Source: an uncultured Desulfatibacillum sp. (GTDB lineage: Bacteria; Desulfobacterota; Desulfobacteria; Desulfobacterales; SpSt-501). Taken from it: a DNA stretch of 64,000 nt. Location of the stretch: NCBI GenBank assembly GCA_964596545.1, contig CAZQUP010000001.1, forward strand, positions 70,181-134,180. The letters are read 5' to 3'. Positions within the stretch are counted from its first letter, which is position 1, and every line of letters begins with the position of its first letter. This document shows positions 11,033-37,669 of this stretch, one piece after another. A program made the translations under genes and the position numbers. The notes beneath the pieces are model-generated. The model had not been told where the DNA came from. It did no database searches and was given only the letters and a program-made list of their open reading frames with translations.

Positions 11033-12751
11033 ATGCCCGTGTTCGCACTTCGCGCACCAGCCGCTACCGCCCGCTTCCGACCCGCGGGGCCTGAACCGAA
11101 ACCTGTGGAGGCGGAGGCTCTCGGCCAATCCCTTCTTGAAGTCACGCGCCCCCTTTTCCTCGTGCGCCGCGGCGCGAAGCTCCTTCTGGCCCGCTCGGGG
11201 ACGGTCAGGTTCGCTCCCGTACCGGAGGGCGAGGAAGACAGCCTGCCGCTGGTCGCCTGGGTCCCCCCCCTGCACCCTGAGGCCTTAGGCGATCCCGGCT
11301 TTCGTGCCGCCTATGGGCTGCGCTATGCCTATGTGGTGGGCGAGATGGCCAACGCCATCACCTCGGTACGGATGGTCCAGGAGGCCGGAAGTGCGGGGAT
11401 GATCGGCTTCTTCGGCACCGGAGGCCTGCTTCCCGCGGAGGTCGAAGAGGCGATCGACGCCCTCCAGCGCACGAGCCCGCAGGTTCCCTTCGGAGTCAAC
11501 CTGATCCACACCCCCGGCGACCCGGAGCTGGAGAACCGTTTGGCGGAGATCTTTCTCGACCGCGGCGTCACCGTCGCCAGCGCCTCGGCTTTCGTCGAGC
11601 CGACCCCCGCGCTCAGCCTCTTCCGCTTGCGGGGCATCTACCGCCTTCCCGACGGCCGCATCGTCTGCCCCAACCGTCTCATCGCCAAGGTCTCCCGCGT
11701 GGAAGTGGCGCGGCGGTTTCTCGCGCCGCCTCCGGCGCGCCATCTCGAGTTCCTGGTGACCCGAGGGGCCCTGCGGCCGAAAGAGGCCGAACTCGCCGCC
11801 TACATCCCGCTCGCCGAGGATCTCACCGCCGAGGCCGACTCCGGAGGCCACACGGACAATCGGCCGGCCATCGCGTTGTTGCCCACGATCCTCGCCCTGC
11901 GCGACGACTGCCGCCGTGAGCACGGCTACGCCCACCTGCCCCGGGTCGGTCTCGCCGGCGGGATCGCCACCCCGCTTTCGGCGGCCGCGGCCTTCGCCAT
12001 GGGCGCAGCCTTCGTCATGGCGGGCTCGGTACACCAAGGCTGCGTCGAGGCCGGGACCTCGGAGGCGGTTCGCCGCCTGCTCGCCGAAGCGGGGCAGGCC
12101 GACGTCGCGATGGCCCCCGCGGCCGACATGTTCGAACTCGGGGTCAAGGTCCAGGTGCTCAAGCGCGGCACGATGTTCGCTCAGCGCGCGGCGAAGCTCT
12201 ACGAGCTTTTTAAAGCCCACGAGCGCTACGAGGAGATCCCCCCGCCGCAGCGGGCGGTCCTCGAGAAGGATTTCTTCCGCCGCTCCTTCGAAGAGGAGTG
12301 GGAGGCGACCCGCGCCTTCTTCCGCGAGCGGGACCCTCGGCAGATCGAGATCGCCGAGCGCAACCCCCGGCACAAGATGGCGCTCGTCTTTCGATCCTAC
12401 CTGGGGCGCTCTTCGCGTTGGGCGATCGCAGGCGAACCCTCGCGGCGCATGGATTATCAGATCTGGTGCGGTCCGGCGATGGGCGCCTTCAATCAGTGGG
12501 CGAAGGGAAGCTTCCTCGAGGATCCCGCCGAGCGCCGCACCGTCACCGTGGCCGCAAACCTCCTCTTCGGCGCGGCCGTAGCCGTGCGCGCCTCCTGGTT
12601 GCGCAACCAGGGAGTCGCCGTGCCCTCCGAAGCCGCGGTTTTCCGGCCTCTCCCCCTCGAGCGGATCGAGGCGTTGTTGGGAGGAACCCCCTTCCGTCCG
12701 GCCGGATCGCCCGGTGAGTTGCCATCCGGGGACGAATCGGCTATGAAATAG
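11033..12751 (+). CDS. pfaD: PfaD-type trans-acting enoyl reductase (nitronate monooxygenase fold)
   Basis: YGLRYAYVVGEMANAITS, GFFGTGGL, PFGVNLIH, AEADSGGHTDNRP, GGIATP and KVQVLKRGTMF fit PUFA-synthase ER proteins. The track start at 11030 is TTG; the ATG at 11033 is preferred. Confidence 0.85.
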   Translation: MPVFALRAPAATARFRPAGPEPKPVEAEALGQSLLEVTRPLFLVRRGAKLLLARSGTVRFAPVPEGEEDSLPLVAWVPPLHPEALGDPGFRAAYGLRYAYVVGEMANAITSVRMVQEAGSAGMIGFFGTGGLLPAEVEEAIDALQRTSPQVPFGVNLIHTPGDPELENRLAEIFLDRGVTVASASAFVEPTPALSLFRLRGIYRLPDGRIVCPNRLIAKVSRVEVARRFLAPPPARHLEFLVTRGALRPKEAELAAYIPLAEDLTAEADSGGHTDNRPAIALLPTILALRDDCRREHGYAHLPRVGLAGGIATPLSAAAAFAMGAAFVMAGSVHQGCVEAGTSEAVRRLLAEAGQADVAMAPAADMFELGVKVQVLKRGTMFAQRAAKLYELFKAHERYEEIPPPQRAVLEKDFFRRSFEEEWEATRAFFRERDPRQIEIAERNPRHKMALVFRSYLGRSSRWAIAGEPSRRMDYQIWCGPAMGAFNQWAKGSFLEDPAERRTVTVAANLLFGAAVAVRASWLRNQGVAVPSEAAVFRPLPLERIEALLGGTPFRPAGSPGELPSGDESAMK

Positions 12752-15700
12752 TGTTTCCGGATTTATCCCCCGCAAACGGCCTGCAGCTGGACCCTCCTGG
12801 AGGTGAAGGGGAGATCGAATTCGAGGTGACCCCGACGTTGAATCGCCGCCCCGCCGCCATCGTGGGCATGGGATGTTTTTTCCCGCAATCGCCCGGCTTG
12901 AAAGGCTACCTCCGGCTTCTGTTCAACGGCCGGGACGCCGTGAGCGAGGTCCCTCCGACCCACTGGTCGCGCGAGGACTATTTCGACCCCGACCCCCGCG
13001 CGCGCGACCGCGTCTATTGCGCCCGCGGCGGGTTTCTTCCGCCCGTCGACTTCGATCCCGCCGCCTTCGGCATCCCTCCGGCCCTGCTCGAAGCGACCGA
13101 CACTTCCCAGCTGCTCGCGCTGCTCGCCGCCCGGGCGGCGCTCGCCGACATGGGCCTGCCCTACGACCCCGCACGCACGAGCGTGATCCTCGGCGTAACG
13201 GGCACCCAGGAGCTGGTGATCCCGCTCAGCTCCCGCCTCGGCTTTCCCCGCTGGCGCCGGGCCCTCGCCGCAGCGGGTGTTTCCGATCAAACCGCCGAAG
13301 AGGTGATCCGCCGCATCTCCGATTCTTACGTCGAGTGGCAGGAAAATTCGTTTCCCGGCCTGCTCGGCAATGTGGTCGCCGGGCGCATCAGCAACCGTTT
13401 GAACCTCGGGGGCACCAACTGCGTGGTCGACGCCGCCTGCGCGAGCTCGCTGGCCGCCGTGCACATGGCGCTCCTCGAACTCGAAGCGGGCCGCTGCGAT
13501 CTCGCCCTCACCGGAGGGGTCGACACGCTGAACGATATTTTCATGCATATGTGTTTCGCCAAGACCCAGGTCCTCTCGGCGACGGGAGACGCCCGGCCGT
13601 TCTCGCAGCACGCCGACGGGACGGTCTTGGGCGAAGGGGTGGGGATCGTCGTTCTGAAGCGCCTCGAGGACGCCGAGCGCGACGGAAACCGTATCTACGC
13701 CGTGCTGCGCGGGCTGGGCTCCTCAAGCGACGGCCGTTCGCAGAGCATCTACGCGCCGCGCCGCGAGGGCCAGGTCGAGGCGCTGCGCGCCGCTTACGCC
13801 GAGGCCGGGGTCGACCCCGGCACCGTGGGGCTGATCGAGGCCCACGGCACGGGGACACGGGTCGGCGACCGGGTGGAGTTCGAGGCCCTCTGTGAGGTGT
13901 TCAAGAGCGCCGGAGCCCCCCTGGGCCGCTGTGCGCTCGGCTCCGTGAAATCCATGATCGGACACACCAAGGCGGCGGCGGGTGTGGCCGGTCTGATCAA
14001 GGCCGCCCTCGCCCTGCACCATCGCGTGCTCTTCCCCACCCTCAAGGCCGAAGATCCGGACCCCGCCTTGAACCTCGAAACCTCCCCTTTCCACCTATGC
14101 CGCCGCGCTCGGCCGTGGTTTTCCCCGGATGGCGCGCCGCGCCGCGCGGGGGTGAGCGCCTTCGGGTTCGGCGGAAGCAACTTCCATGCGGTCCTCGAGG
14201 AACACGGATCCTCCCGCCGGGAAATCGGCTGGGACGGCTCCGTTCAGATCTTCGCTTTTTCGGCCGGGTCCCCCGCGGAGCTTCTGAAGGAAATTTCCGC
14301 GACGACTGCAGATCCGAAGCTTTCCGCCTCCGGGGAGGGCTGGTCGCGGCTCGCCGCCGAAACGCGCGCCCGTTTCGACCCGAACGCAGCCTGTCGGCTG
14401 CTCTTTCCTGCCTCGGATGCCCGGGAAGCGTTGGATGGACTTCAGACCGCCCGGAAGCGGCTCGTACAAGAAGCGCCCGCCGGCGATCCGACCGGCCGCG
14501 GCGTTTGCTATGGGGAAGGGGCCCCCGCGGGAGCTCTCGCCATTCTCTTTCCCGGGCAGGGAAGCCAGTACCCCGACATGGGCCGCGAGTTGATCCTGCG
14601 CTTTCCGGCGGCGCGCGAGACGATCGAGACCGCCCAGCGCGTGCTCGGCCTCAAGCCTCCGCTGGGGGATCGGATCTACCCGCCGCATCCACCCGGTCGC
14701 CCGGATGAGGAGCGCCTCCAGTCGACCGAGCTTGCGCAGCCGGCGATCGGCGCGGTGAGTCTCGCCCTCTGGAAGGTGCTGCGCGCCTTCGGCCTATCGC
14801 CTGCGGCCGCAGGCGGTCATAGCTTCGGCGAGCTGACGGCCCTCTGCGCCGCAGGCCGGATCGACGAGGAAGACTTCTTCGCGCTCGCCCGGGCCCGCGG
14901 TCGGGCGATGGCGGAAGCGCCCGCCGGAGCCATGGCGGCCGTCTTCGCTCCGCTTGCCGAGGTGGAAAGGGCGGTTTCCGAAACCGGTCTCCCGGTCGGG
15001 GTCGCCAACCGCAATGCTCCGCGGCAAACGGTGGTTTCCGGTTCCAAAGATGCCGTACAGCGGCTCGCCGCGACCCTCGGCCGGCGCGGCGTGCGGGTGG
15101 TGTCGCTTCCGGTGAGCGGGGCCTTTCACAGCCCGCTCATGACCGAGGCGAGCCAATCCTTTGCCGCGGCGCTGGAACGCGCCGATTTCGCTCCGGCCGC
15201 GCTTCAAGTCTTTTCCAGTCGGACGAAGACCCCCTTCCCCGCCGAGACGGACGCCGTCCGCCGGCTGCTCGCCGAGCAGATGCTTTTCGAGGTCGATTTC
15301 ATCGGTCTGATCGAGGCGATGTACGCCGGCGGAATCCGCTCCTTCGTTGAAATCGGTCCTCGGGCCGTTCTCTCCGGGCTGGTCGCCGAAATCCTTGCCG
15401 GACGACCGCATGCGGCCTTTTCCGTGGATTCCTCCTCGGGGCGGAAACCGGGGCTTCTCGATCTGGCGGCAGCCCTGTGCCGGATCTGTGCCTTGGGTTA
15501 CCCGCTGGATCTCATTCGATGGGACCCGGCGGAGCCGGTGGCATCCTCCTCGAGCCGTCTGCGCATTCCGATCTGCGGAGCGAATCTCGGTCCTTCCACC
15601 GACCGCAAAGGCGAAAACCCTCTACCGCCGGCCACCCCGCGGTGTCCCGGAGCCGACGACGGCCGGAATTTGAAGGCTCACCGAGAGCCGATATCGAGTT

Positions 15701-18700
15701 CATCCCGTCTTCGCGAAACGCCTATGGAAAATGAATCCTCCTCCATTCCGCCAACCCGGCGTGCGGAAGAACACCGCCGCACCCTCGAAGAGGGTCTTCA
15801 GGCCATTCGCCGAATCCACGAGCAAACGGCCCAGGCCCACGAAAAGTTCCTGGACCTGCAGCGCGAGACCACCCAGGCGCTCCTGGATCTGATCCGCGGC
15901 TCGGATACGGCGCGTTTCCCGGCGATCAGACCCTCGCAGCTTCCCGAGGGCTCAACCGTCGACCCACCCCTGCCCTTAGACCCCTCGGTCGCCCTTTCCG
16001 CCCAAGATCCCCTTTCGATTCCCGCCGCGGTCGAAATGAAACCTTCATCCCCTCCCGACCCGGCCCCGGCGGTCCGCAGCGCCGCCGCACAGGAGCCCCC
16101 GCCGCCCGAGGCTCCACCCGCACCCCAGGCCTCCTCCCCCCCGGCCACCCCCGCCCTGCAGGACGTGCTCCTCGAGGTGGTCAGCCGCCTGACCGGCTAC
16201 CCCCCGGAGATGCTCGGATTCGACCTGGACATCGAGGCCGATCTCGGCATCGACTCCATCAAACGCGTCGAAATCCTCTCCGCCCTCGAAGAAAAGATCC
16301 CCGGCCTGCGCCCCGTCACCCCCGAAGACATGCCCCGGCTCAAAACGCTCTCCGCCATGGTCTCCTTCTTCGCCGCCCCCCGGGCCGCAACACCCCCTCC
16401 CGACCCGGCCCCGGCGGTCCGCAGCGCCGCCGCACAGGAGCCCCCGCCGCCCGAGGCTCCACCCGCACCCGCCAAGTCTGTAGCGCCCGCCCCGCGGCGG
16501 ATCATTACCTTGGAGCCGGCACCGGAGATCGACCCGGTCGACGTGCAGGTGCCTTCCGGCCGCAAGATTTTCGTGACCGACGACCGCTCGGGGCTTGCGC
16601 GCGCGGTTCTTGATGTACTGAGCGATCTCGGCCTGAGCGCCGTCCTGGTGGCCGCCGACATCCTGCATCATCGGCGCGACCTTCCCCCCGCGGCGGGGCT
16701 GTTCTTCGTCGCCCGTCCCGACGGCGAAGACGGACAGCGGGAACTGCGGGACGCCTTCGAACTCACCCGGCGTCTGGGCCCGGATCTGATCGAGAGCGCT
16801 CGGCTCGGCGGGGCCTTTTTTGCCACCGTCAGCCGACTGGACGGGGCCTTGGGTTTCAGCGGCCGCAGGCTTTCCCGGCCGCTCCAGGGAGCGCTCGCCG
16901 GCCTGGCCAAAACCGCGGCGATCGAATGGCCCGAGGTCATCTGCCACGCCCTGGATCTCGACCCCGACTGGAGGGATCTGCGTACCGCCGCAAGGGCCGT
17001 CGTGCGGGAAGCGTTGCATCGCGGGCCGTTGGAAGTGGGTCTCGGACCGCACGGCCGCCTTGTGCCCCGGTTGGTGCGCCGCGAGGATCCCGCTGCCGGC
17101 CCCCTGCCGCTTGCGCCCGGCGAAACCGTGATCGTCAGCGGAGGAGCGCGGGGCATCACCGCCGCCTGCGCCGTGGAGCTCGCCCGCCGGGTGCGGCCGG
17201 CCCTGGTCCTGCTCGGCCGGACTCCGGAACCGGGACCCGAGCCCCTCTGGATGCAGGGATTGGAGGAGGAAAACGAAATCCGCCGGGCCCTCCTGCGCGA
17301 GGAATTTTCCGCGTCCTCGGCCCGGCCGGCGGAGGCGGAGAAAAAGCTCCGACTCCTGCTTGCCGCCCGGGAGGTCCGCAACACCCTGCAAACCCTGCAA
17401 GAGCTGGGGGCGCCGGCGGCCTACGTTTCCGTCGACGTGCGCGATCCCGTCCGCCTGCGCGCGGTCGTTGCCGAGGCCCGCGATCGCTTCGGCCCGATCC
17501 GCGGGCTGATCCACGGGGCGGGTGTGCTCGAGGACCGCCTGATTCTCGACAAAACCCTCGAGCAATTCGACCGCGTGATGAGCACGAAGCTCGGCGGGTT
17601 TCTTGCGCTGCGGGAAGCCCTGGGGGACGAAGAGCTTCGCCTGATGGTTCTTTTCTCCTCGGTGACGGCGCGCTTCGGAAACCGCGGTCAGGCCGACTAC
17701 GCCATGGCCAACGAGGCCTTGAACAAGCTCGCCCGCGCCGAGGCGCGGCGACGGCCCGGCTGCCGGGTCGTCGCCGTCAACTGGGGGCCCTGGGATTGCG
17801 GCATGGTGACCCCGGGCATCCGCCGCGAGTTCGAACGCCGAGGGGTCGAGCTTCTCTCCGCGGCGCAGGGCGCGGCGTCACTGATCGCCGAACTGCGCCG
17901 GCCGCCGGATGAAGAGGCGGTCGAAGTCGTGATCGGCGGGATGAACCGCCGGAAACGGCTGACGGCCTTTTCGTCGCGGAAGACCGAAGGCCTGCGGCCC
18001 CTGATCGAGCGCCGCCTCGACCTGGTGAGCCATCCCGTGCTGCGCGCCCACGTGTTGGGCGAACGCGCCGTCGTGCCGCTGGCGCTGATCGCCGAATGGC
18101 TGGGCGAAGGCGCCCTGCACGAAAACCCAGGGCTCGTGTTGGACGGATTGGAGGAGATCCGCCTGCTCAAGGGCATCCGCCTCGAGGCCTCGCCCTACCC
18201 GGTGCACATTCTGGCCGGCAAGCCCCGCGCGCGAAACGGAGGCTTCGAAGTCGACCTCGAGCTGCGCGGGGGGGAAAACGAGTCCACAGAGACGCTCCAT
18301 TGCCGAGCACGGGCCGTTCTCGCCGAGACCCACGCCTCGCCCCCCGTTTATCGCCTTCCCTCCGGGCTTTCCTGCAATCATTACCCGCGCTCCCCCCGTG
18401 AGGTTTACGAGGCCGTTCTTTTTCACGGCGAGGCGCTTCAGGGATTGCGCTGGATTCAGTGTTGCACCGCCGAGGGCATGGTCGCCGACGTCGCCGCCGC
18501 CCCCCGCCCGGAGTCATGGGTCGAAAGCCCCTTTCGCCGGAGCTGGCTCGGAGACCCCCTGGCACTCGACGCCGCCTTCCAGATGGCGAGCCTGTGGTGT
18601 TGGGAAATGAAAGGGGCGGTCTGCCTCCCGAGCGGCGTATCCTCCTTTCGCCTTTACCGGGGGCAATGGCCCGAAGAGGGGTGCCGTGTGGTGCTCGAGA

Positions 18701-18909
18701 TCCGCGATGCGAGCAGCCGAAAATTGCAAGGCGATTTCATGTTTCTCGACGCCGACCACAAACCGATCGCCCAGCTCACCGGCTTCGAGGCCGTGATCGA
18801 CCCCTCGCTCAACCGGGCCTTCAAGCCGGGCGGCATCCGCGCGGAGCCTCTCGCGCTCGGGGAGAGCGGGGTACCGGAAAGCTCCGTTCAATCCGGGAGC
18901 AGATCGTAA
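12751..18909 (+). CDS. pfaA: PfaA-type multidomain synthase: KS - AT - single ACP - KR - PKS-type DH
   Basis: GTG start overlaps the pfaD stop (TAGTG). Domain anchors: KS active-site DAACASS (Cys codon 13438-13440) with HGTGT and GHTKAAAG; AT GQGSQ and GHSFGE (Ser codon 14821-14823); ACP LGIDSIKRVEI (Ser codon 16255-16257); KR GGARGIT (17140-17154); C-terminal DH motif HVLGERAVVP. Confidence 0.9.
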   Translation: MFPDLSPANGLQLDPPGGEGEIEFEVTPTLNRRPAAIVGMGCFFPQSPGLKGYLRLLFNGRDAVSEVPPTHWSREDYFDPDPRARDRVYCARGGFLPPVDFDPAAFGIPPALLEATDTSQLLALLAARAALADMGLPYDPARTSVILGVTGTQELVIPLSSRLGFPRWRRALAAAGVSDQTAEEVIRRISDSYVEWQENSFPGLLGNVVAGRISNRLNLGGTNCVVDAACASSLAAVHMALLELEAGRCDLALTGGVDTLNDIFMHMCFAKTQVLSATGDARPFSQHADGTVLGEGVGIVVLKRLEDAERDGNRIYAVLRGLGSSSDGRSQSIYAPRREGQVEALRAAYAEAGVDPGTVGLIEAHGTGTRVGDRVEFEALCEVFKSAGAPLGRCALGSVKSMIGHTKAAAGVAGLIKAALALHHRVLFPTLKAEDPDPALNLETSPFHLCRRARPWFSPDGAPRRAGVSAFGFGGSNFHAVLEEHGSSRREIGWDGSVQIFAFSAGSPAELLKEISATTADPKLSASGEGWSRLAAETRARFDPNAACRLLFPASDAREALDGLQTARKRLVQEAPAGDPTGRGVCYGEGAPAGALAILFPGQGSQYPDMGRELILRFPAARETIETAQRVLGLKPPLGDRIYPPHPPGRPDEERLQSTELAQPAIGAVSLALWKVLRAFGLSPAAAGGHSFGELTALCAAGRIDEEDFFALARARGRAMAEAPAGAMAAVFAPLAEVERAVSETGLPVGVANRNAPRQTVVSGSKDAVQRLAATLGRRGVRVVSLPVSGAFHSPLMTEASQSFAAALERADFAPAALQVFSSRTKTPFPAETDAVRRLLAEQMLFEVDFIGLIEAMYAGGIRSFVEIGPRAVLSGLVAEILAGRPHAAFSVDSSSGRKPGLLDLAAALCRICALGYPLDLIRWDPAEPVASSSSRLRIPICGANLGPSTDRKGENPLPPATPRCPGADDGRNLKAHREPISSSSRLRETPMENESSSIPPTRRAEEHRRTLEEGLQAIRRIHEQTAQAHEKFLDLQRETTQALLDLIRGSDTARFPAIRPSQLPEGSTVDPPLPLDPSVALSAQDPLSIPAAVEMKPSSPPDPAPAVRSAAAQEPPPPEAPPAPQASSPPATPALQDVLLEVVSRLTGYPPEMLGFDLDIEADLGIDSIKRVEILSALEEKIPGLRPVTPEDMPRLKTLSAMVSFFAAPRAATPPPDPAPAVRSAAAQEPPPPEAPPAPAKSVAPAPRRIITLEPAPEIDPVDVQVPSGRKIFVTDDRSGLARAVLDVLSDLGLSAVLVAADILHHRRDLPPAAGLFFVARPDGEDGQRELRDAFELTRRLGPDLIESARLGGAFFATVSRLDGALGFSGRRLSRPLQGALAGLAKTAAIEWPEVICHALDLDPDWRDLRTAARAVVREALHRGPLEVGLGPHGRLVPRLVRREDPAAGPLPLAPGETVIVSGGARGITAACAVELARRVRPALVLLGRTPEPGPEPLWMQGLEEENEIRRALLREEFSASSARPAEAEKKLRLLLAAREVRNTLQTLQELGAPAAYVSVDVRDPVRLRAVVAEARDRFGPIRGLIHGAGVLEDRLILDKTLEQFDRVMSTKLGGFLALREALGDEELRLMVLFSSVTARFGNRGQADYAMANEALNKLARAEARRRPGCRVVAVNWGPWDCGMVTPGIRREFERRGVELLSAAQGAASLIAELRRPPDEEAVEVVIGGMNRRKRLTAFSSRKTEGLRPLIERRLDLVSHPVLRAHVLGERAVVPLALIAEWLGEGALHENPGLVLDGLEEIRLLKGIRLEASPYPVHILAGKPRARNGGFEVDLELRGGENESTETLHCRARAVLAETHASPPVYRLPSGLSCNHYPRSPREVYEAVLFHGEALQGLRWIQCCTAEGMVADVAAAPRPESWVESPFRRSWLGDPLALDAAFQMASLWCWEMKGAVCLPSGVSSFRLYRGQWPEEGCRVVLEIRDASSRKLQGDFMFLDADHKPIAQLTGFEAVIDPSLNRAFKPGGIRAEPLALGESGVPESSVQSGSRS
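16049..16125 (+). repeat. Direct repeat copy 1 (77 bp, Pro/Ala linker upstream of the ACP)
   Basis: By hand alignment this is identical over 77 bp to 16394..16470. It encodes PPDPAPAVRSAAAQEPPPPEAPPAP. Confidence 0.9.
16394..16470 (+). repeat. Direct repeat copy 2 (77 bp, linker downstream of the ACP)
   Basis: Perfect copy of 16049..16125, offset by exactly 345 bp (115 codons, one linker+ACP unit). Confidence 0.9.
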
Positions 18910-20254: not shown

Positions 20255-20278
20255 GCCGTCCGCGGCGCCGGATCCCGG

Positions 20279-27152: not shown

Positions 27153-30100
27153 ATGGACAGGCCGTCCCCGATCGCCGTCGTCGGTATCTCCGGGCTGTTT
27201 CCCGGAGCTCACGACCTGGCGGCATTCTGGAACCTCATGACCTCCGGGCGTCCCGCGGCGGCCGAAGTCCCCCGGGAGCGCTGGAACGTCTCGCCCGAAC
27301 GGTTCGTCTTCGCCCGGCCGATCCCCGACCGTGCCTATTCGCGCATCTCCTGCCTGTTGCAGGAGCCTCCCTTCGATCCGCGTGCGGTCGAACCCGGTTT
27401 ACCGGAAGGGAAGAATCTCGACCCGATGCAGCGGATCGTGCTCCGGGCCGCGCACGACCTGCTCACAGCCCCCGGGCCTCTCCCACTGAACCGCGAGCGC
27501 ACGGCGGTCGTTCTCGCCGCGATCGTACTCCCCACCGATTCCGCAACCCGCTGGAGCTGGGAGGTCCTTGCGCCGCAAATCGAACAGCGCTGCGGTCGCG
27601 CCCTTTTTCGCAGGCCGGAAAGCTCCGCCGCGCTTCATTCCGCCGCCGCACGCGTCGCCTCGTATCCCGCCGCCCTGCTCGCACGGGTTTTCGGGCTGGG
27701 AGGCGGAAGCTTCACCCTCGATGCCGCCTGCGCTTCCTCGCTCTACGCTATAAAGCTCGCCTGCGACGCCCTCCGGGCCGGGCGGGCCGACGCCGTGGTG
27801 ACCGGGGGGGTCTCGCGCCCCGACGCCCTGTTCACCCAGATCGGCTTCAGCCAGCTGCGGGCCCTCTCTCCGAGCGGCCGCTGCGCTCCTTTCGATCGCC
27901 ACGCCGACGGCCTCGTGGTGGGCGAGGGGGTCGGGCTTTTGCTCCTCAAACGCCTCGAGGACGCTCTGCAGGCAGGGGACCGGATCTGGGGCCTGATCCG
28001 CGGCATCGGCCTTTCGAACGACACGCGGGGAAGTCTTCTCGCCCCCGATCCGGACGGCCAGTGGCGGGCCCTTTCGGCGGCCTACGCCCAGGCCGGCTGG
28101 CGGCCCGAGGAGGTGGACTATATCGAGTGCCACGGAGCGGGAACTCCCGTCGGCGATGCGGTCGAGCTGGAGAGTTTGAGCCGTCTGCGGCAGGACACCC
28201 CGGCCTGCCCCATCGGCTCGGTCAAGTCCATCATCGGCCACCTGCTCACCGCCGCGGGCGCAGCGGGAATGATCCGGGTGCTGCTGGCGATGCGTCACGG
28301 GCTCATCCCCCCGACCCTGAATTTCCGCGAGCCCCCGACCGACAGCCCGATCGCCCATGGCCGCTTCCGCATCCCCGCCAAACCCGAACCGTGGATCCGC
28401 CGCGGCGAGGGGATCCCGCGCCGCGCGGCCGTGAGCGCCTTCGGTTTCGGAGGCATCAACGGTCACCTGCTGCTGGAGGAATGGCTCGCGGATCGGCCCC
28501 GAAACCTCCAATCCTCATGCGGCCGCCCGAACGGGCAGACGGCCCTTGAGGGGGAGGAGCCGTCGTCGTCGAACGCACCCGCCGCTTCGTCACCGGTTGC
28601 GGTGATCGGTCTTGCCGCCCGAGTCGGTCCCTACCCCTCCCTGGAGGCCCTGGGACGGGCTCTCGAAAAGGGGGAAAGGCCCCTTTCGCCACCTCCCCCG
28701 CAGCGCCTGGAAAAGAGGGCGCCGTTCGCGCTTCCGGAAGCCTTTCCCCCGGGGTTATATCTCGCCGACGAACCGGCGGTGAGCCGCCGGTTCCGGATTC
28801 CGCCCGCGGAGCAGCGCGATCTGCTGCGGCAGCATGCGGTTATGCTCGAGGTCGCCGCCGCGGCCATGGATGACGCCAAATTCGATGCCCGGGTGGAGCG
28901 TCCGGCGATGGGAGCGCTGGTAGGCATCGATTTCGACTTCGAGGCGACCCGTTACGGGCTGCGCTGGCGCCTGGAAGATCTCTCAGGCGTCATGCCCCCC
29001 GAGGAGGCCGAGCCTCTTCTGGAAAACCTGTCCCCGCCGCTTACGGCCTCGCGGGTGCTCGGATCCCTCGGCAGCATGGTGGCGAGCCGCATCGCGCGGG
29101 AGTTCCGCTTGGGCGGGCCGAGCTACGCCGTGAGCGCCGAGGCCTGCTCGGGGCTGCGCGCGCTCGAGATCGCCATGCGCGCGGTTCAATCCGGGGAGAT
29201 GGATGCGGTGCTGGTGGGCGCCGTCGACCTTCCGGGCGATCCCCGACGACTCGCCGCGAAGGAACAGCCCGCCCCGCCCCCTGCGGAAGGTGCGGTCGCC
29301 TTGGTGCTCAAACGCCGCGATCGCGCCTTGGCGGACGGGGACCGCATCCGCTTGATCCTGCGCGGTGCGGGCGCGGCGGGGGGCGAAGACCAGGGAGGCT
29401 CCCTTCGCCGCGCCCTCGCGGCGGCCCTCGCCGAGGCGAACGTCCCCTCCACGGCGGTCCGCCGCGCGGTCTGCGGCGGCCCGGATCGGGGGGAGGAGCT
29501 CCGCCGTCTTCTCCCGGAAGGAACCCGGATCGAATCGGTCCTAGACCGTCTGGGGGACTCAGGGGCGGCCGGGGGGCTCTTGGCGCTCCTGCAAGCTTGT
29601 TTGTCCTCCGCGGATCCGCACGGCGAAGGGCTCACGCTGATCAGCGCCGCCAGCCCCGAGGGCCACTGCCTGCAGGTTCTGGCTGAGTTTCCATCCCCCC
29701 TCGAAAAACGATCCGGCGGGGCCGTCAAGCCGGCGACGCCGGCGGAAAGGCCCTCGGCCGGAGCCGCCTCCCCGTCCCCGGCGACACCGGGCCGCCTGGC
29801 GGCAAGCGCCGCAGAAACGATCCTCGCGCTTTCCCGTTCCGCGGCCGCCGCCCATCGGAAGTATCTCGATTTTTCCCTCGAGTTGACCCGCGGCCTCGCC
29901 GGAACCCTGGGCCGCGGGGCCATCCGCCGGGAAACGCCCGGGGCTTCCTTTTCGCCCCGGGTGCTCTTCAACCGTGCCGCCTGCCTGGAGTTCGCCCGGG
30001 GCTCCGCCGCGCGGGTACTCGGCCCGGAGTTCGCCGCCGTCGACCGCTATCCGGTGCGCGTGCGGCTTCCCGACGAGCCGCTCATGCTGGTGGATCGGAT

Positions 30101-32357
30101 TTTGGAAATCCAGGGACGCAAGGGCACCCTGGGTCCGGGGCGCATCGTCACCGAGCATGACGTCCGGGAAAACGCCTGGTACCTCGACGGCGGCCGCGCG
30201 CCGATCAGCATCACGATCGAGGCCGGCCAAGCCGACCTGTTCCTGTGCGCCTGGCTCGGCATCGATCTTGCCGTCCGAGGCCGCCGCGCCTACCGCCTGC
30301 TCGATGCCGCGGTGCGCTTTCACCGCGCCCTGCCCACGCCCGGAGAAACCATCCGCTATGCGATCGAAATCGAAAAGTTCATCCGCCAAGGGGAGACCCA
30401 TCTCTTCTTTTTCCGCTTCGAGGGCACCATAGACGGCCGACCGCTGATCACGATGCGAGGGGGATGCGCCGGATTCTTCACGGCCGAGGAATCCCTGCAC
30501 TCGGGCGGCATCGTGCTTTCCCCAGAGGAAACGGCCCCTTCCCCTGGGAAGACGCCCGCCGCGTTTTCCTGGCCGGTCCCGGAGGAGGCCGCCGCCTTCG
30601 ACGATGCGGCCCTCGAGGCCCTGCGGGAGGGGGATGCCGCGCGCGCTTTCGGACCGCTCTTCGCCGGGGTCCGCATTCCCGAAACGCTGCGTCTTCCCGG
30701 CGGCCGTCTGCGGCTGATCGACCGCATCGTTTCCTTCGAACCGCACGGCGGGCGCTACGGATTGGGCAGCATCCGCGCCGAGGCCGACATCGATCCTGAG
30801 GCCTGGTTCCTCGTTTGCCATTTCGTCGATGACCGGGTCATGCCGGGCACCCTGATGTACGAGTGCTGCAACCAGGCGTTGCGCGTGCTGTTGCTCCGCC
30901 GCGGCTGGTTCCTCGAGCGGACGGGGCTGCGCTTCGAACCGGTCCCGGGCGTGGAGGCGGTCCTCACCTGCCGCGGGCCGGTCACCCCTTCGGTGCGCCG
31001 CGTCCACTACGAGGTCCATCTCAAGGAAGCGGGGTATCGACCCGAGCCTTACGTGCGGGCGGACGCCTTCCTTTACGCCGACGGTCGGCGCATCGTGCGC
31101 TTTCGCGACCTGTCCCTGAAACTCTGCGGAGCCTCCGCCGCCGATCTCGAAGCCTTCTGGAAACCGCGAAGGGTTCCTCCCCCCTTGAACCCCACAAAAA
31201 TCCTGGTTTCCCGAGACGGCCTCGAGGATTTTGCGACCGGCCACTCCTCGGCGGCTTTCGGCGATCGATACCTCCCCTATGACGGAAACCGCCATCTCGC
31301 CCGTCTTCCCGCCCCCCCGTTTCTTTTCCTGGACCGCATCCTCGAGGCCGGGCCCCGACCCTTCGTTCTGCGCCCGAAAGGCTGGGCCGAGTCCGAATTC
31401 GACATCCGGCCCGCAGCATGGTATGTCGCGGCCGAACGCACGGGAGCCATACCTTTCTGCGTTTTGCTCGAAACCGCGCTCCAGACCTGCGGCTTTCTCG
31501 CGGCTTACCTGGGTTCGGCCTTGAAGAGCGAAAAAGATCTCTTCTTCCGCAACCTGGACGGAAGCGGGTTGCTCGAGCGGCCGCTTTCGGCGGAGGCCGG
31601 AACCCTGCGGACGCGCTGCCGCCTGACGCGCGTCTCCGAGATGGCCGACCTCATCCTCGAGCAGTTCGCCTTCGAGGTTCACGATCGGCGAGGGCTCCTC
31701 TATTCCGGCACCGCGGGCTTCGGCTTCTTCACCCGCGAGGCGCTCGCTGGACAGCGGGGGATCTCCGGTGCGCCTCAGGCACCTCCGGCGGAGACGGCGG
31801 CGGAACTCGAGCGGCTCTGGCCCGATGTCCCCCCGTTTGAGCCGACCGATGCGGACCGCGCGCCGGACGGTGGCCTGCAGCTTCCGGCGCGGGCCCTGCG
31901 GATGATCGACCGCCTCGCAGGCTGGGAGGCCCGGGGAGGAAGCGCCGGCGCCGGTCGCCTGCTCGGCTTGAAGGAGATACGCGCCGGGGAGTGGTTCTTC
32001 CAGGCCCACTTCCACGGCGATCCGGTGTGGCCGGGCTCGCTCGGCCTCGAGGCCTTGATCCAACTTCTCAAAGCCGCAGCGATCCTCAAGTTGCCTGAAA
32101 GACGGTCTACTCACCGCTTTTTCCTGCCGCCCGGCAGGCGGCACCGCTGGAGCTACCGCGGCCAGGTGCGGCCGCAGAACCGTCGGGTGCTCGTGGAAGC
32201 CGACCTCCAAGGTCTCGAAGAGCGTCCCGCGGAGTCCGTTTTCTGGGGCGACGGGCGCCTCTGGGTGGATGGATTGTGCATTTACCGGATGGAAGGCTTC
32301 GGCGTCGGCCTCGCGCCGCAACACCCGGCCGACCGGTGCCTGCGCCCGCCCCGCTGA
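27153..32357 (+). CDS. pfaC: PfaC-type multidomain synthase: KS - CLF-like KS - two FabA-type DH double-hotdog units
   Basis: KS DAACASS (Cys codon 27729-27731) with HGAGT and GHLLTAAG. The second KS-like domain reads SAEACSG, with Ala aligned to the KS cysteine (CLF-like). FabA-type motifs: CHFVDDRVMPG (His codon 30819-30821) and AHFHGDPVWPG (His codon 32007-32009). No AT domain is present. Confidence 0.9.
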   Translation: MDRPSPIAVVGISGLFPGAHDLAAFWNLMTSGRPAAAEVPRERWNVSPERFVFARPIPDRAYSRISCLLQEPPFDPRAVEPGLPEGKNLDPMQRIVLRAAHDLLTAPGPLPLNRERTAVVLAAIVLPTDSATRWSWEVLAPQIEQRCGRALFRRPESSAALHSAAARVASYPAALLARVFGLGGGSFTLDAACASSLYAIKLACDALRAGRADAVVTGGVSRPDALFTQIGFSQLRALSPSGRCAPFDRHADGLVVGEGVGLLLLKRLEDALQAGDRIWGLIRGIGLSNDTRGSLLAPDPDGQWRALSAAYAQAGWRPEEVDYIECHGAGTPVGDAVELESLSRLRQDTPACPIGSVKSIIGHLLTAAGAAGMIRVLLAMRHGLIPPTLNFREPPTDSPIAHGRFRIPAKPEPWIRRGEGIPRRAAVSAFGFGGINGHLLLEEWLADRPRNLQSSCGRPNGQTALEGEEPSSSNAPAASSPVAVIGLAARVGPYPSLEALGRALEKGERPLSPPPPQRLEKRAPFALPEAFPPGLYLADEPAVSRRFRIPPAEQRDLLRQHAVMLEVAAAAMDDAKFDARVERPAMGALVGIDFDFEATRYGLRWRLEDLSGVMPPEEAEPLLENLSPPLTASRVLGSLGSMVASRIAREFRLGGPSYAVSAEACSGLRALEIAMRAVQSGEMDAVLVGAVDLPGDPRRLAAKEQPAPPPAEGAVALVLKRRDRALADGDRIRLILRGAGAAGGEDQGGSLRRALAAALAEANVPSTAVRRAVCGGPDRGEELRRLLPEGTRIESVLDRLGDSGAAGGLLALLQACLSSADPHGEGLTLISAASPEGHCLQVLAEFPSPLEKRSGGAVKPATPAERPSAGAASPSPATPGRLAASAAETILALSRSAAAAHRKYLDFSLELTRGLAGTLGRGAIRRETPGASFSPRVLFNRAACLEFARGSAARVLGPEFAAVDRYPVRVRLPDEPLMLVDRILEIQGRKGTLGPGRIVTEHDVRENAWYLDGGRAPISITIEAGQADLFLCAWLGIDLAVRGRRAYRLLDAAVRFHRALPTPGETIRYAIEIEKFIRQGETHLFFFRFEGTIDGRPLITMRGGCAGFFTAEESLHSGGIVLSPEETAPSPGKTPAAFSWPVPEEAAAFDDAALEALREGDAARAFGPLFAGVRIPETLRLPGGRLRLIDRIVSFEPHGGRYGLGSIRAEADIDPEAWFLVCHFVDDRVMPGTLMYECCNQALRVLLLRRGWFLERTGLRFEPVPGVEAVLTCRGPVTPSVRRVHYEVHLKEAGYRPEPYVRADAFLYADGRRIVRFRDLSLKLCGASAADLEAFWKPRRVPPPLNPTKILVSRDGLEDFATGHSSAAFGDRYLPYDGNRHLARLPAPPFLFLDRILEAGPRPFVLRPKGWAESEFDIRPAAWYVAAERTGAIPFCVLLETALQTCGFLAAYLGSALKSEKDLFFRNLDGSGLLERPLSAEAGTLRTRCRLTRVSEMADLILEQFAFEVHDRRGLLYSGTAGFGFFTREALAGQRGISGAPQAPPAETAAELERLWPDVPPFEPTDADRAPDGGLQLPARALRMIDRLAGWEARGGSAGAGRLLGLKEIRAGEWFFQAHFHGDPVWPGSLGLEALIQLLKAAAILKLPERRSTHRFFLPPGRRHRWSYRGQVRPQNRRVLVEADLQGLEERPAESVFWGDGRLWVDGLCIYRMEGFGVGLAPQHPADRCLRPPR

Positions 32358-32373
32358 AAGAAACCGGATCCCC

Positions 32374-33414: not shown

Positions 33415-33420
33415 ACGGCC

Positions 33421-34320
33421 GTGAACGACTGGCGCGCTCTCTACCCTTTCCGCTCGCGGTTCCTCGCGGTGAACGGCCGCCGTATGCACTACGTGGATGA
33501 GGGCCGCGGCGCCCCGCTCGTCATGGTGCACGGCAACCCGACTTGGTCGTTCTTTTTCCGCTCCCTGATCGCCGGCCTCTCGGGTCGCTTCCGTTGCCTC
33601 GCCCCCGACCACATCGGCTGCGGGCTCTCGGAGCGCCCCGCCCCCCGCGGCTACGGCTTCCGCTTGGCGGATCGCGTGGCGGATTTCACGGCCTGGATGG
33701 AGCAGGTGGTCCCCGAAGAGCCCGTCACCCTCGTGCTGCACGACTGGGGCGGAATGATCGCCTCCGCGTGGGCGGTCGGGCGTCCCGAACGGATATCCCG
33801 GCTCGTCGTTCTGAACACCGCGGCCTTCTGCAAGCCGGAAGAAAAACCGCTTCCCCGGGTGCTCGCGCTGCTGCGGCGCCATCCGCGCACGGCGGCCGTT
33901 CTCGTCTGCGGCCTCAATCTCTTCACCCGCGGCGCGGCCCATACGGCGACGGCCCGCGGGCTTTCGCCCGCGGCGCGCGCCGGGCTGCTGGCACCCTATC
34001 GCGGCGGCTGGAAGCGACGAATCGCGCTGCTGCGGTTCGTCCTGGACATCCCGCTTTCGCCCGCCGACCCGAGCTGGCCCACGGTCGCGGCGGTTGATCG
34101 CGCCGTCGGGCGGCTGCAAACAAAGCCTCTCCTCCTCCTCTGGGCGGAGAGGGACTTCGTCTTCGACGGCGACTATCTCGCCGAATGGCGCCGGCGCTTT
34201 CCTGCGGCGGAGGTGCACACTTTTCCGGATGCAGGCCATTACCTGCTCGAGGACGAGCCCGTCGCCGCTCTCACGCGGATCGCCGATTTCCTCTCCCGCA
34301 CGGGGGCCTCCCCCGATTGA
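33421..34320 (+). CDS. oleB: OleB, alpha/beta-hydrolase (haloalkane-dehalogenase-like) beta-lactone decarboxylase
   Basis: GTG start lies 6 nt after oleA. MHYVDEGRGAPLVMVHGNPTWSFFFR and nucleophile elbow LVLHDWGG (Asp codon 33742-33744) are present, and the gene sits within ole order. Confidence 0.8.
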   Translation: MNDWRALYPFRSRFLAVNGRRMHYVDEGRGAPLVMVHGNPTWSFFFRSLIAGLSGRFRCLAPDHIGCGLSERPAPRGYGFRLADRVADFTAWMEQVVPEEPVTLVLHDWGGMIASAWAVGRPERISRLVVLNTAAFCKPEEKPLPRVLALLRRHPRTAAVLVCGLNLFTRGAAHTATARGLSPAARAGLLAPYRGGWKRRIALLRFVLDIPLSPADPSWPTVAAVDRAVGRLQTKPLLLLWAERDFVFDGDYLAEWRRRFPAAEVHTFPDAGHYLLEDEPVAALTRIADFLSRTGASPD

Positions 34321-34399
34321 AAAAGCCCGCTCCTTGCGGTAGGGGAAGGCGCCGGGCGGGGTATCCGCCCCCCCGGCTTTCCGAAAACCCGATCGCCGG

Positions 34400-36124
34400 A
34401 TGACGGTCATGACGGACCCCCTTCCTGCGGAGGTCCCGGGCGCCAACATCGCCTCGACCCTGAGCGAGGCCGCTCGGTCCGCTCCCTATAAGCCGGCCGT
34501 GGTGGCCGCGGCGGGCCGCGGCCCGGACGGCCGGCTGCGTTACGCCCACCTCACGTTCGCCGCGCTCGAGGAGTCCTCGGACCGCCTGGCCTGGGGCCTG
34601 AAGGAGATCGGCCTGGACCGCGGCATACGGACGATCCTTCTGGTCCGCCCGAGTCTCGAATTTTTCGAGGTGCTTTTCGCCCTTTTCAAGGTCGGAGCCG
34701 TGCCGGTGATCGTCGATCCGGGCATGGGGTTGCAGCGCATGCTCGCCTGCTACCGCTCGACCCGACCTCAGGCCATGATCGGCATTCCCCGGGCGCACGC
34801 CTTCCGGAGCCTCTTCCGGAAGCATTTCCGGGACGTCCGCATCCGCGTCACCGTCGGCCGCAGATGGTTCTGGGGGGGAAAGACGCTTCGATCGCTTTAC
34901 CGGACGGGCCGCGGCTCGTTTCCCGCCGCCGCGAACGCCCCTGACGACCCCGCGGCCATCCTGTTCACGACCGGAAGCACCGGGCCGGTGAAAGGCGCCG
35001 TTTACACCCACGGCGGCTTCGCCGCCCAGCTCCGGGCCGTCGGCCGCGAACTCGCCTTCGGTCCGGAGGAAAAGGACCTCTCCACCTTTCCGCTCTTCGC
35101 CCTCTTCTACCCCGCCTTGGGGGTGACCGCCGTGCTTCCGCCGCTGGATCCCCGACGTCCGGCAAAGGCCGACCCGGCGCTTCTGTTGGAAGTGATGGAG
35201 AACCAGGGGGTGACCAACCTCTTCGCTTCGCCCGCACTCCTCGAGCGCCTGGCCGGATTTTGCGCCGACCGCGGTCGGCGGCTTCCCTTTCTGCGGCGCG
35301 TGATCTCCGCCGGAGCGCCGGTTCCGCCGGCGACGGTCGCCTGCGTTCGCCCGCTGCATGCGGCCTCCGCCGAGATCCTCACCCCCTACGGCGCTACCGA
35401 GGCCGTCCCGGTCGCCGTGATCCGCGACGCGGAGATCCTCACCGAAACGCGCCCGCTCACCGAGCGGGGCTACGGCATCTGCGTCGGCACCCCCGTCCAG
35501 GGCATCGAACTGCGGATTCTGCGCATCCGCGACGAGCCGATCCCGCATTGGGACGATGGGCTCGAGCTGCCCGCCGGAGAGATCGGGGAAATCGTCGTAC
35601 GCGGAGCTCATGTAAGTCCAGGCTACTTCGAAAATCCCCGGGCCGACGCCCTGCACAAGATCCCCGACGGCGACGGCGGGTTCTGGCATCGCATGGGCGA
35701 TCTCGGATGGATCGACCGCAAGGGTCGTCTGTGGTTCTGCGGCCGCAAGAGTCATCGGGTGATCACCTCTTCCGGAACCCTCTTCACGGTCCCCTGTGAG
35801 GGAATTTTCAACACCCATCCCCTCGTCCGTCGCAGCGCCCTCGTCGGCGTAGGGCCGAGCGGACACCAGGTGCCGGTGCTGTGTGTCGAGTTGCGCCGGA
35901 CCCAGCGCCGGGTCCGTCGCCATGTCGTGCGCGAAGAGCTTCTCGATCTCGCCCAACGCCACGAGATGACCCGTTCGATCCGCACCGTGCTCTTTCATCG
36001 CTCCTTCCCGGTGGACATCCGGCACAACGCGAAGATCCGGCGCGAGGACCTCGCCGCGTGGGCCGCCCGTCGGATGAAGATGAAAAGCGCCCGCAGCCGG
36101 GGACGAAAGGGAATGCCTCCGTGA
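34400..36124 (+). CDS. oleC: OleC, AMP-dependent synthetase-family beta-lactone synthetase
   Basis: Adenylation motifs LFTTGSTGPVKGAVYTH, YGATEA and GEIVVRGAHVSPGYF are present, and the gene sits between oleB and oleD. Confidence 0.8.
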   Translation: MTVMTDPLPAEVPGANIASTLSEAARSAPYKPAVVAAAGRGPDGRLRYAHLTFAALEESSDRLAWGLKEIGLDRGIRTILLVRPSLEFFEVLFALFKVGAVPVIVDPGMGLQRMLACYRSTRPQAMIGIPRAHAFRSLFRKHFRDVRIRVTVGRRWFWGGKTLRSLYRTGRGSFPAAANAPDDPAAILFTTGSTGPVKGAVYTHGGFAAQLRAVGRELAFGPEEKDLSTFPLFALFYPALGVTAVLPPLDPRRPAKADPALLLEVMENQGVTNLFASPALLERLAGFCADRGRRLPFLRRVISAGAPVPPATVACVRPLHAASAEILTPYGATEAVPVAVIRDAEILTETRPLTERGYGICVGTPVQGIELRILRIRDEPIPHWDDGLELPAGEIGEIVVRGAHVSPGYFENPRADALHKIPDGDGGFWHRMGDLGWIDRKGRLWFCGRKSHRVITSSGTLFTVPCEGIFNTHPLVRRSALVGVGPSGHQVPVLCVELRRTQRRVRRHVVREELLDLAQRHEMTRSIRTVLFHRSFPVDIRHNAKIRREDLAAWAARRMKMKSARSRGRKGMPP

Positions 36125-37140
36125 ACCGCTGCGGCGACGAACCCATCCTGGTCACCGGCCCGGGCGGCTTTCTCGGGTCGGCCTTGGTTTCCGCCCTCCT
36201 CGCCCGGGGACGCAAGGTGCGGGGCTTCAGCCGCTCGAAACCCCCGGGGCTCTCCCGTCTGCCCGTCCGGTTCCTGCCGGGCGACCTCGCCGACCCCGAA
36301 GCGGTGAACCGGGCCTGCCGTGGGGTGGAAGTCGTCTTTCACACGGCGGCCAAGCCGCCGCCGTGGGGTCGAAGGCGAGACTACGTACGGACCAACGTGC
36401 GGGGAACCCGAAATGTGATCGACGCCTGCCTTCGCCACGGGGTCCGACGCCTGATCTACACGAGCTCCCCGAGCGTCGTCTTCAACGGCCGCGACCTGGA
36501 AGGGGTCGACGAGTCGGCTCCCTACCCCGCACGCTACAACGCCGACTACCCGGCCACCAAGGCCGAAGCCGAACGGGCGGTCATCGCTGCGGGCAAGGCA
36601 GGGGATCTGCGGACGATCGTTCTCCGCCCCCACCAGATCTGGGGACCGGGGGACCCGCATTTCCTCCCCCGGCTGCTGCGGCGCGCCCACCGCCTGCGGC
36701 GGATCGGAGACGGGAAAAACCTCGTGGACACGACCTTTATCGACGACGCCGTGGAGGCGCACCTGCTTGCGGATCGGGCGCTGGCGGAGAACCCGGCTCT
36801 TTCCGGGCGCGTTTTTTTTATCAGCCAGGGCGAACCTCTGCCCGCCTGGGAGATGATCGACCGCATCCTGAACGCGGCCGGGCGCCCCCCGGTGCAGGGC
36901 TCGATCTCGCTTGTCGCCGCTCGGCGGATCGGCTGGGTTTGCGAGTGGCTCTGGCGTGGGCTGGCGCTGCCCGGGGAGCCTCCGCTTACGCGATTCGTGG
37001 CCGAGGCCCTGGGCACGGCGCACTGGTTTGACCTCTCGGCCGCGCGGCGCGATCTGGGCTACCGCCCCCGGGTTTCCGTGGCTCAAGGACTCGAGCGCCT
37101 GGCCCGCTTCCTGCGGCCGGGGAACGGAAATCTTCGATGA
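36121..37140 (+). CDS. oleD: OleD, NAD(P)H-dependent 3-beta-HSD/SDR-family reductase
   Basis: GTG start overlaps the oleC stop (GTGA). Rossmann motif ILVTGPGGFLGSALV and catalytic YPATKAEAE (YxxxK) are present. The track's 35881 start is an in-frame upstream extension inside oleC. Confidence 0.8.
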   Translation: MNRCGDEPILVTGPGGFLGSALVSALLARGRKVRGFSRSKPPGLSRLPVRFLPGDLADPEAVNRACRGVEVVFHTAAKPPPWGRRRDYVRTNVRGTRNVIDACLRHGVRRLIYTSSPSVVFNGRDLEGVDESAPYPARYNADYPATKAEAERAVIAAGKAGDLRTIVLRPHQIWGPGDPHFLPRLLRRAHRLRRIGDGKNLVDTTFIDDAVEAHLLADRALAENPALSGRVFFISQGEPLPAWEMIDRILNAAGRPPVQGSISLVAARRIGWVCEWLWRGLALPGEPPLTRFVAEALGTAHWFDLSAARRDLGYRPRVSVAQGLERLARFLRPGNGNLR

Positions 37141-37156
37141 ACCGAGGAGGAAGGAG

Positions 37157-37669
37157 ATGACCTTGACCGATCTGGCCCCCCTCGAACGATGGCGCGCGCT
37201 CGAGGAGGAACTTCATGCGCAATCGGGGATGGATGTCAGCGTTTTCGACCCGCGCGGCTACCGCATCCTGCCCGAAAAGCGCTGGGCGAACCGCTTGTGC
37301 CCGGCGGTCAAGGAGACCGACAAGGGCCAGAGCTTCATCTGCGCGCCCGCGCACATGAACCTCGCCGCCCAGGCCGCGCGCTCGCGCGAGCCGGTGATCG
37401 AGGAGTGCGACGCGGGGATGATCAAGATCGTGGTTCCGATTTTCGCCGGCGAGGAGTTCGTCGGCGCGGTGGGCGCCTGCGGCCTGCGCTTCGAGGACGC
37501 CGAGATCGACGCCTTCCTGGTGAGCAAAATGACCGATCTCCCCGAGGAGCAAGTGGAGGAGCTCGCCCGCAGCGTCGCCCCCTTCGAGCGCCGGGAAGCC
37601 GCCGCACTGGTCGATCTCATCCGGCGGCGCATCGACGAGCTGGTCTCCGGCATAAGCCGAGATCCATGA
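37157..37669 (+). CDS. Stand-alone PocR ligand-binding domain protein
   Basis: ATG lies 16 nt after the oleD stop and is preceded by GAGGAGGAAGGAG. SGMDVSVFDPRG, C-x-C-rich core and ECDAGMIKIVVPIFAGEEFVGAVGACG match the PocR sensory domain pattern. No output domain is present. Confidence 0.65.
   Translation: MTLTDLAPLERWRALEEELHAQSGMDVSVFDPRGYRILPEKRWANRLCPAVKETDKGQSFICAPAHMNLAAQAARSREPVIEECDAGMIKIVVPIFAGEEFVGAVGACGLRFEDAEIDAFLVSKMTDLPEEQVEELARSVAPFERREAAALVDLIRRRIDELVSGISRDP

Follow-up and report, generated by a model that had tools for sequence, protein, structure and literature searches.

Does a bacterial locus that carries genes of a polyunsaturated fatty acid (PUFA) synthase-like system (pfa) together with a complete oleABCD set encode one assembly line for long-chain olefins, and how closely are its two halves joined? 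The question is raised by a window (the whole 64,000-nucleotide stretch that was analyzed, contig CAZQUP010000001.1) from an uncultured Desulfatibacillum sp. The locus is probably the Desulfobacterales form of an already known 'Type I-like' arrangement, in which a pfa-like secondary-lipid synthase is linked to oleABCD, and its product, judged by homology, is most likely a long-chain polyunsaturated hydrocarbon. The window has a uniform G+C content of ~65-70% across the region. Seven open reading frames (ORFs) of the pathway, all intact and all on the plus strand, occupy the positions that an earlier note on this DNA had assigned to them:

11033..12751, plus strand: pfaD, PfaD-family enoyl reductase (ER); earliest possible start TTG at 11030, then ATG at 11033
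12751..18909, plus strand: pfaA, 2052 amino acids (aa)
27153..32357, plus strand: pfaC, 1734 aa
32374..33414, plus strand: oleA, predicted head-to-head condensing thiolase
33421..34320, plus strand: oleB, α/β-hydrolase of the β-lactone decarboxylase type, related to haloalkane dehalogenases
34400..36124, plus strand: oleC, AMP-dependent β-lactone synthetase type
36121..37140, plus strand: oleD, NAD(P)H-dependent 2-alkyl-3-oxoalkanoate reductase type, GTG start

The junctions described in the earlier note are found in the sequence as well. The pfaD stop and the pfaA start overlap in TAGTG (12749-12753), a gap of 16 nucleotides (nt) separates pfaC from oleA, and the co-directional oleA-oleB-oleC-oleD run (32374-37140) has gaps of 6 nt, 79 nt, and -4 nt, the last being the GTGA overlap of the oleC stop with the oleD start (36121-36124). 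Tight coupling is limited to the inside of pfaD-pfaA and the inside of pfaC-oleA-oleB-oleC-oleD. The description of the genes as 'physically fused' and forming 'one translationally coupled unit' was therefore overstated: 8.2 kb with a gene on the opposite strand splits the first block from the second. The cluster had also been drawn too long, up to 37669; OleD stops at 37140, and 37157-37669 is a separate ORF with a PocR domain. At least two expression units are predicted, pfaD-pfaA and pfaC-oleA-oleB-oleC-oleD-pocR, and the second may start further upstream of pfaC. A promoter and terminator scan of 18700-38000 returned counts at the level of shuffled sequence, which are no evidence on transcription units; its sole good sigma-70-like site (20279-20307) lies before an ACT-domain gene of the intervening stretch.

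Domains and catalytic residues of the encoded enzymes

[quoted passage not shown] PfaD scores 590.8 bits with TIGR02814 (cut-off 449), as a PfaD enoyl reductase does, and contains the Pfam domains NMO and FabD_helical_ins; compared with its counterpart in L081 (related loci are numbered from L001), it shows 80% aa identity and a ratio of nonsynonymous to synonymous substitution rates (dN/dS) of 0.20. PfaA scores 1301.7 bits with TIGR02813 (cut-off 1010), which places it among proteins of the KS-MAT-ACP(n)-KR(-DH) layout (MAT, malonyltransferase-type AT), and its motifs DAACASS, GHSFG, DSI, and GGARGI are all present. Its domains are as follows:

~12847-14046, plus strand: PfaA KS (Pfam)
~14545-15378, plus strand: PfaA AT (Pfam)
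~16126-16395, plus strand: PfaA ACP, single (one PP-binding domain in Pfam; tblastn)
~17125-17796, plus strand: PfaA KR (Pfam)
~18391-18789, plus strand: PfaA PS-DH (Pfam)

Pfam matches, alignment, and motifs likewise agree with the reading of PfaC as a 1734-aa protein with a KS, a chain length factor (CLF), and two FabA-type DH domains. The DH motif HFxxDxVxPG occurs in it as HFVDDRVMPG and HFHGDPVWPG, and its dN/dS compared with L001 is 0.29.

~27165-28325, plus strand: PfaC KS (Pfam; DAACASS, HGAGT, GHLLTAAG)
~28561-29957, plus strand: PfaC CLF, a second KS-like domain with the catalytic Cys and His replaced (KS vs. CLF alignment)
~30681-31124, plus strand: PfaC DH1, FabA-type (Pfam)
~31881-32291, plus strand: PfaC DH2, FabA-type (Pfam)

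For OleA, a FabH identity, named beforehand as an outcome that would overturn the assignment, is ruled out by PDB and NCBIfam scores. Among all PDB chains, OleA from Xanthomonas campestris (3ROW, 3S21, and 4KTI) is the best match over the full length (212 bits, E ~1e-61), whereas FabH-type chains reach at most 76 bits and E. coli FabH ~47 bits. The score with NF006720 is 460 bits (cut-off 285), against 78 bits with the fabH model TIGR00747 (cut-off 292). The catalytic residues are kept: Cys123, Glu97, His273, and Asn303 align with Cys143, Glu117, His285, and Asn315 of the X. campestris enzyme. Glu117 (X. campestris numbering) is the OleA-specific base of the OleA structural literature. The NACLG active site and the C-terminal LLGIGSGLNCLMLAVDW, in which a resemblance to Xanthomonas OleA had been seen, both align to that protein. 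Homologs at 64-73% identity bear the JGI label acyl-CoA:acyl-CoA alkyltransferase. The window OleA is accordingly best described as a predicted head-to-head condensing thiolase that would join two long acyl chains by a non-decarboxylative Claisen condensation.

The types named for OleB, OleC, and OleD are borne out by PDB and Pfam matches, by the best NCBIfam families, and by the oleABCD order. OleB matches Abhydrolase_1 in Pfam, and its nearest solved structures are haloalkane dehalogenases, a kinship expected for OleB; membership in the haloalkane dehalogenase-like subfamily is assigned at the level of motifs (HGNPT and HDWG aligned). OleC scores 701 bits with NF006754 (cut-off 478), and OleD contains the Pfam domains 3Beta_HSD and Epimerase. 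Every gene of the cluster has a dN/dS of 0.07-0.31, with oleA at 0.07; the genes are under purifying selection and show no decay.

Linkage of pfaC and oleA in relatives and in known systems

To sample synteny, 80 species-representative loci (OleA ± 10 kb) were searched by tblastn with the window proteins. Adjacency of pfaC and oleA was counted in the 72 informative loci, those with 1 kb or more of sequence upstream, nearly all from Desulfobacterales with a few Planctomycetes bins. The search for this adjacency in other genomes, which the earlier note had suggested, was successful: pfaC stands immediately upstream of oleA in 56 of the 72, mostly with gaps below 100 nt or with overlapping genes (e.g., the cultured Desulfatitalea alkaliphila M08but, L047, and a Planctomycetaceae metagenome-assembled genome (MAG), L079). 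The adjacency is the usual arrangement in Desulfobacterales, and oleA-B-C-D is colinear in nearly all 80 loci. OleA homologs number in the thousands, the closest (97% identical) coming from an uncultured Desulfobacterales MAG. A metagenome scan with the PfaA C-terminus yielded nine loci, to be read as examples and not as statistics. A contiguous pfaD-pfaA-pfaC-oleA order is found in L087, and pfaA directly precedes pfaC-oleABCD in L026 and L079.

The Desulfobacterales pfaBC-oleABCD loci (L047 and ~55 other species representatives) resemble the window in having pfaC right upstream of colinear oleABCD, with OleA identities of 56-97% and, in some, the same PocR gene after oleD. They differ from the window in that PfaC mostly measures 2300-2450 aa and includes an AT module (Type I's 'pfaBC fusion'), pfaA mostly lies outside the sampled upstream flank, and a DHH/CBS-ACT-DUF711 block comes after oleD rather than before pfaC in several. 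Desulfococcus oleovorans Hxd3 has a Type K cluster (PMC3098273) that probably belongs to this group. Among the sampled loci, L004 (JBLMXM010000134.1), from a MAG labeled Hyphomicrobiales, has a Desulfobacterales-like order of CDP-alcohol phosphatidyltransferase, flavin adenine dinucleotide (FAD)-dependent protein, pfaC, oleABCD, and PocR genes with 70% OleA identity; the contig may have been placed in the wrong bin.

In Shewanella oneidensis MR-1, the pfa and ole loci are not known to be linked. Experiments showed that the C31:9 polyene of this organism depends on both systems: its formation requires Pfa, and OleA joins both pathways by diverting Pfa intermediates in vivo (PMC6463001), in agreement with the account in the earlier note that the polyene needs pfa as well as ole genes. 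In Photobacterium profundum SS9 the pfa and ole operons are adjacent (Allemann et al. 2019, PMC6463001). Both Gammaproteobacteria share the two enzyme systems (pfaABCDE and oleABCD) with the window; unlike it, they have a tandem-ACP PfaA, a separate PfaB, and PfaT between the operons, and make eicosapentaenoic or docosahexaenoic acid. Ole genes are described in the literature as 'often linked' to pfa-like clusters. Shulse and Allen (2011, PMC3098273) defined Type I clusters (Geobacter, Desulfuromonas, Pelobacter, and Gemmata; Type K being that of D. oleovorans), which are proposed to feed olefin synthesis. Among the closest described counterparts is the Type I cluster of Geobacter bemidjiensis Bem, which has pfaD-A-B-C-oleA-B-C-D-pfaE in tandem and makes C31:9 hentriacontanonaene (Yoshida et al. 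2016, PMC4882568). Its host is likewise an obligately anaerobic 'deltaproteobacterium', and the order of pfaD, pfaA, pfaC, and oleABCD on one strand is alike. The window differs in that unrelated genes spanning 8.2 kb separate pfaA from pfaC, PfaA has one ACP, a PfaB/AT module is lacking, and a PocR-domain gene, not pfaE, follows oleD. As published surveys of pfa and ole genes already list such an arrangement, the novelty implied for the synteny does not stand.

The same comparisons bear on an alternative in which the two pathways are co-located and biochemically independent: the pfa-like synthase would make its own secondary lipid (a PUFA or other long-chain acyl group for phospholipids), OleABCD would use acyl-CoAs from the fatty acid synthase of type II (FAS II), and linkage would reflect shared regulation in membrane adaptation rather than channeling. 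The 16 of 72 informative OleA loci without an upstream pfaC are compatible with such independence, and so is the phosphatidylinositol-phosphate (PIP) synthase-like gene that lies a short way upstream of pfaC both in the window and in L001, L004, and L081. According to Shulse and Allen, pfa homologs may retain a stand-alone product, and the same pfa type occurs with differing ole configurations (PMC3098273). OleABCD of X. campestris, which shares with the window the OleA fold, the catalytic Cys/Glu/His/Asn, and the oleA-B-C-D order, has no pfa partner; its OleA takes FAS-derived (FAS II) acyl-CoAs (PMC7064751), and its accessory genes are PF13784 and PF03692 instead of PocR. Independence of the pathways nevertheless appears unlikely. 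With 16 nt in the window and frequent overlaps elsewhere, the pfaC-oleA junction is very tight, and it is kept across Desulfobacterales and Planctomycetes; S. oneidensis OleA uses the Pfa-derived 16:4 chain exclusively despite the presence of FAS II (PMC6463001); and G. bemidjiensis, with its tandem cluster, does make C31:9 (PMC4882568).

Predicted pathway and missing synthase parts

A Pfa-type synthase feeding OleABCD to give a long-chain polyolefin, as the earlier note had suggested, is the best-supported reading, and it is a hypothesis already published for Type I pfa-like clusters (PMC3098273, PMC4882568, PMC6463001). Working iteratively, PfaA (KS-AT-ACP-KR-DH), PfaC (KS-CLF-DH-DH), and PfaD (ER) would assemble a polyunsaturated acyl chain attached to PfaA's single ACP. 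OleA would condense a pair of these chains, head to head, to give a 2-alkyl-3-ketoacid. This intermediate would be reduced by OleD, after which OleC would close the β-lactone, and its decarboxylation by OleB would yield a C31:9-type long-chain polyene. The idea that a 'PfaC-bound product' is handed to OleA finds no support, because PfaC has no carrier domain and the sole ACP resides on PfaA. For S. oneidensis, it was proposed that OleA interacts directly with the ACP and that a thioesterase, PfaT, plays an auxiliary part (Allemann et al. 2019, PMC6463001).

Several features weigh against the polyolefin reading. The pfaD-pfaA pair is not contiguous with pfaC-ole in the window, and most Desulfobacterales loci do not have pfaA immediately ahead of pfaC, so that stoichiometric co-expression is not guaranteed. 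PfaC has no Acyl_transf_1 match in Pfam, i.e., no AT module, and the ORFs scanned in the 64-kb window include no separate PfaB or other AT, no phosphopantetheinyl transferase (PPTase, PfaE), and no PfaT-like or hot-dog thioesterase. A PPTase gene may be located elsewhere in the genome; in the relatives, no pfaE-like gene follows oleD either, the ORFs there being of CBS, methyltransferase, deacetylase, DUF480, FAD, and SpoIIE types. Tandem ACPs, the hallmark of Shulse and Allen, are absent from the window PfaA, in which tblastn finds one. OleC scores 605 and 558 bits with the olefin β-lactone synthetase models, under their cut-offs of 900 and 850, and OleD, with NF042422 (OleD) as its best match, reaches 385 bits (338 with the other model) under a cut-off of 580. 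Finally, for the window organism as for the Desulfobacterales relatives examined, the polyene is a product that we infer from homology.

The weight of the OleC and OleD scores depends on the models, which are narrow equivalog models built on Xanthomonas and Shewanella orthologs. Falling under such cut-offs weakens strict equivalog naming, not the predicted function, as these are still by far the best specific families (the next one for OleD, HpnA, scores 129 bits).

The number of ACPs varies among relatives by tblastn, with one in L081, L082, and L084-L086 and two in L087 and L079, and a repeat search in pfaA found the following:

16046-16125 and 16391-16470, plus strand: 80-nt direct repeat inside pfaA, copies 99% identical

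The copies are spaced by 345 nt, equal to one ACP-plus-linker unit, and flank the single ACP. The repeat could be a leftover of tandem ACPs; because it brackets the ACP, a collapse of repeated ACPs in the assembly could also explain it.

The missing AT is shared with relatives. The window PfaC is ~700 aa shorter, AT included, than PfaBC of D. alkaliphila (L047:2661-10004), and two forms occur among the related loci: one of ~2300-2450 aa with an AT (KS-CLF-AT-DH2) and one of ~1730-1950 aa without it (window, L001, L004-L007, and L074). Loss of these ~700 aa is one of the observations behind a second alternative, in which the Ole end product is a β-lactone or a ketone, or the Pfa enzymes, which lack an AT and have a single ACP, are remnants in decay, and no Pfa-derived polyolefin is made. 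Clusters of the oleACD type do make β-lactones, OleB, OleC, and OleD all score under curated equivalog cut-offs, and P. profundum SS9 has no detectable polyene despite its adjacent operons (PMC6463001). This outcome seems highly improbable here: olefin clusters are defined by the decarboxylase OleB, which is intact in the window and carries dehalogenase-type motifs, the ORFs are all uninterrupted with the low dN/dS values given above, catalytic motifs are intact, and the AT-less PfaC has been kept in several lineages.

A more specific form of the polyolefin reading can be offered tentatively, and it is rather doubtful: the window might encode a stripped-down, olefin-dedicated Pfa synthase with a single ACP, no thioesterase, and loss of the PfaB/AT module for release and chain length, from whose PfaA ACP OleA itself would off-load polyenoyl chains directly, and the conserved PocR protein encoded after oleD would sense hydrocarbons or lipids and so tune the pathway.

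Earlier publications already contain the pfa-ole link, the tandem arrangement, and the proposed handoff of substrate, and the locus opens no new question; its lineage-specific traits (AT-less PfaC, single ACP, 8.2-kb interruption, and a PocR gene replacing pfaE after oleD) are minor. With this locus, an uncultured lineage of Desulfobacterales with high GC joins the predicted makers of Pfa-derived polyunsaturated hydrocarbons; together, the window and the related loci present pfaC-oleA coupling as the rule in this order. This bears on how long-chain polyenes in anoxic sediments are interpreted as lipid biomarkers and on the choice of compact clusters for engineered olefin production.

Intervening block and flanking genes

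The interval between pfaA and pfaC (18910-27152, 8.2 kb) contains eight genes without an evident pfa or ole role in Pfam and NCBIfam:

18888-20291, minus strand: DHH/CBS gene, convergent with pfaA and overlapping its 3' end by 22 nt
20337-20891: ACT gene (Pfam/NCBIfam)
20903-22276: DUF711 gene (Pfam/NCBIfam)
22280-24882: amino-acid ATP-binding cassette (ABC) permease, binding protein, and second permease (Pfam/NCBIfam)
24956-25624, plus strand: PIP-synthase-like CDP-alcohol phosphatidyltransferase, under NCBIfam cut-offs
25575-27002, plus strand: FAD-dependent protein, overlapping the CDP-alcohol phosphatidyltransferase gene

The last two genes lie directly upstream of pfaC, as they do in L001, L004, and L081, and a lipid-related tie of the pair to the cluster is possible. 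The dN/dS above 1 obtained for the CDP-alcohol phosphatidyltransferase against L081 is a spurious value, caused by an in-frame stop in the aligned stretch. L081 and L082 share the whole split order (pfaD-pfaA-DHH/CBS on the minus strand-ACT-DUF711-ABC-CDP-alcohol phosphatidyltransferase-FAD-pfaC) at 72-85% aa identity. Because the DHH/CBS-ACT-DUF711 block sits directly after oleD in other Desulfobacterales (L008, L012, L031, L036, L073, and L074), the separation probably arose when a block was rearranged, in this lineage specifically, within a once tighter locus.

Downstream of oleD, one more gene follows in the same direction:

37157..37669, plus strand: PocR-sensory-domain-only ORF, 171 aa, 17 nt after oleD (PF10114, 56.6 bits)

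It is preceded by a strong ribosome-binding site, GGAGGAAGGAG, and its dN/dS compared with L001, computed on the true ORF, is 0.26. A PocR gene adjoins oleD in 14 of the 39 related loci with enough downstream DNA, which makes it a candidate accessory gene of the cluster; no paper tying PocR to ole genes was found. Convergent with it is an α/β-hydrolase gene of the 3-oxoadipate enol-lactonase type (37688-38959, minus strand), which scores 263.7 bits with TIGR02427, barely above the cut-off, and has an N-terminal extension of ~170 aa; a CofD-like gene and an aldehyde:ferredoxin oxidoreductase gene lie beside it.

On the other side, directly upstream of pfaD, a XerD-type tyrosine recombinase is encoded at 10022-10927 (plus strand; TIGR02225, 359 bits, above the cut-off). 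A mobile-element origin of the cluster was considered and rejected, as the recombinase is of the housekeeping XerD type and the GC profile is flat. Further downstream, a cellulose synthesis set occupies 43115-50110 on the plus strand, with BcsB-like (43115-46222), BcsZ-like glycoside hydrolase family 8 (GH8) endoglucanase (46227-47297), and BcsC-like (46271-50110, with tetratricopeptide (TPR) repeats) genes; as listed, the BcsZ-like and BcsC-like reading frames overlap, and their genes need to be called properly.

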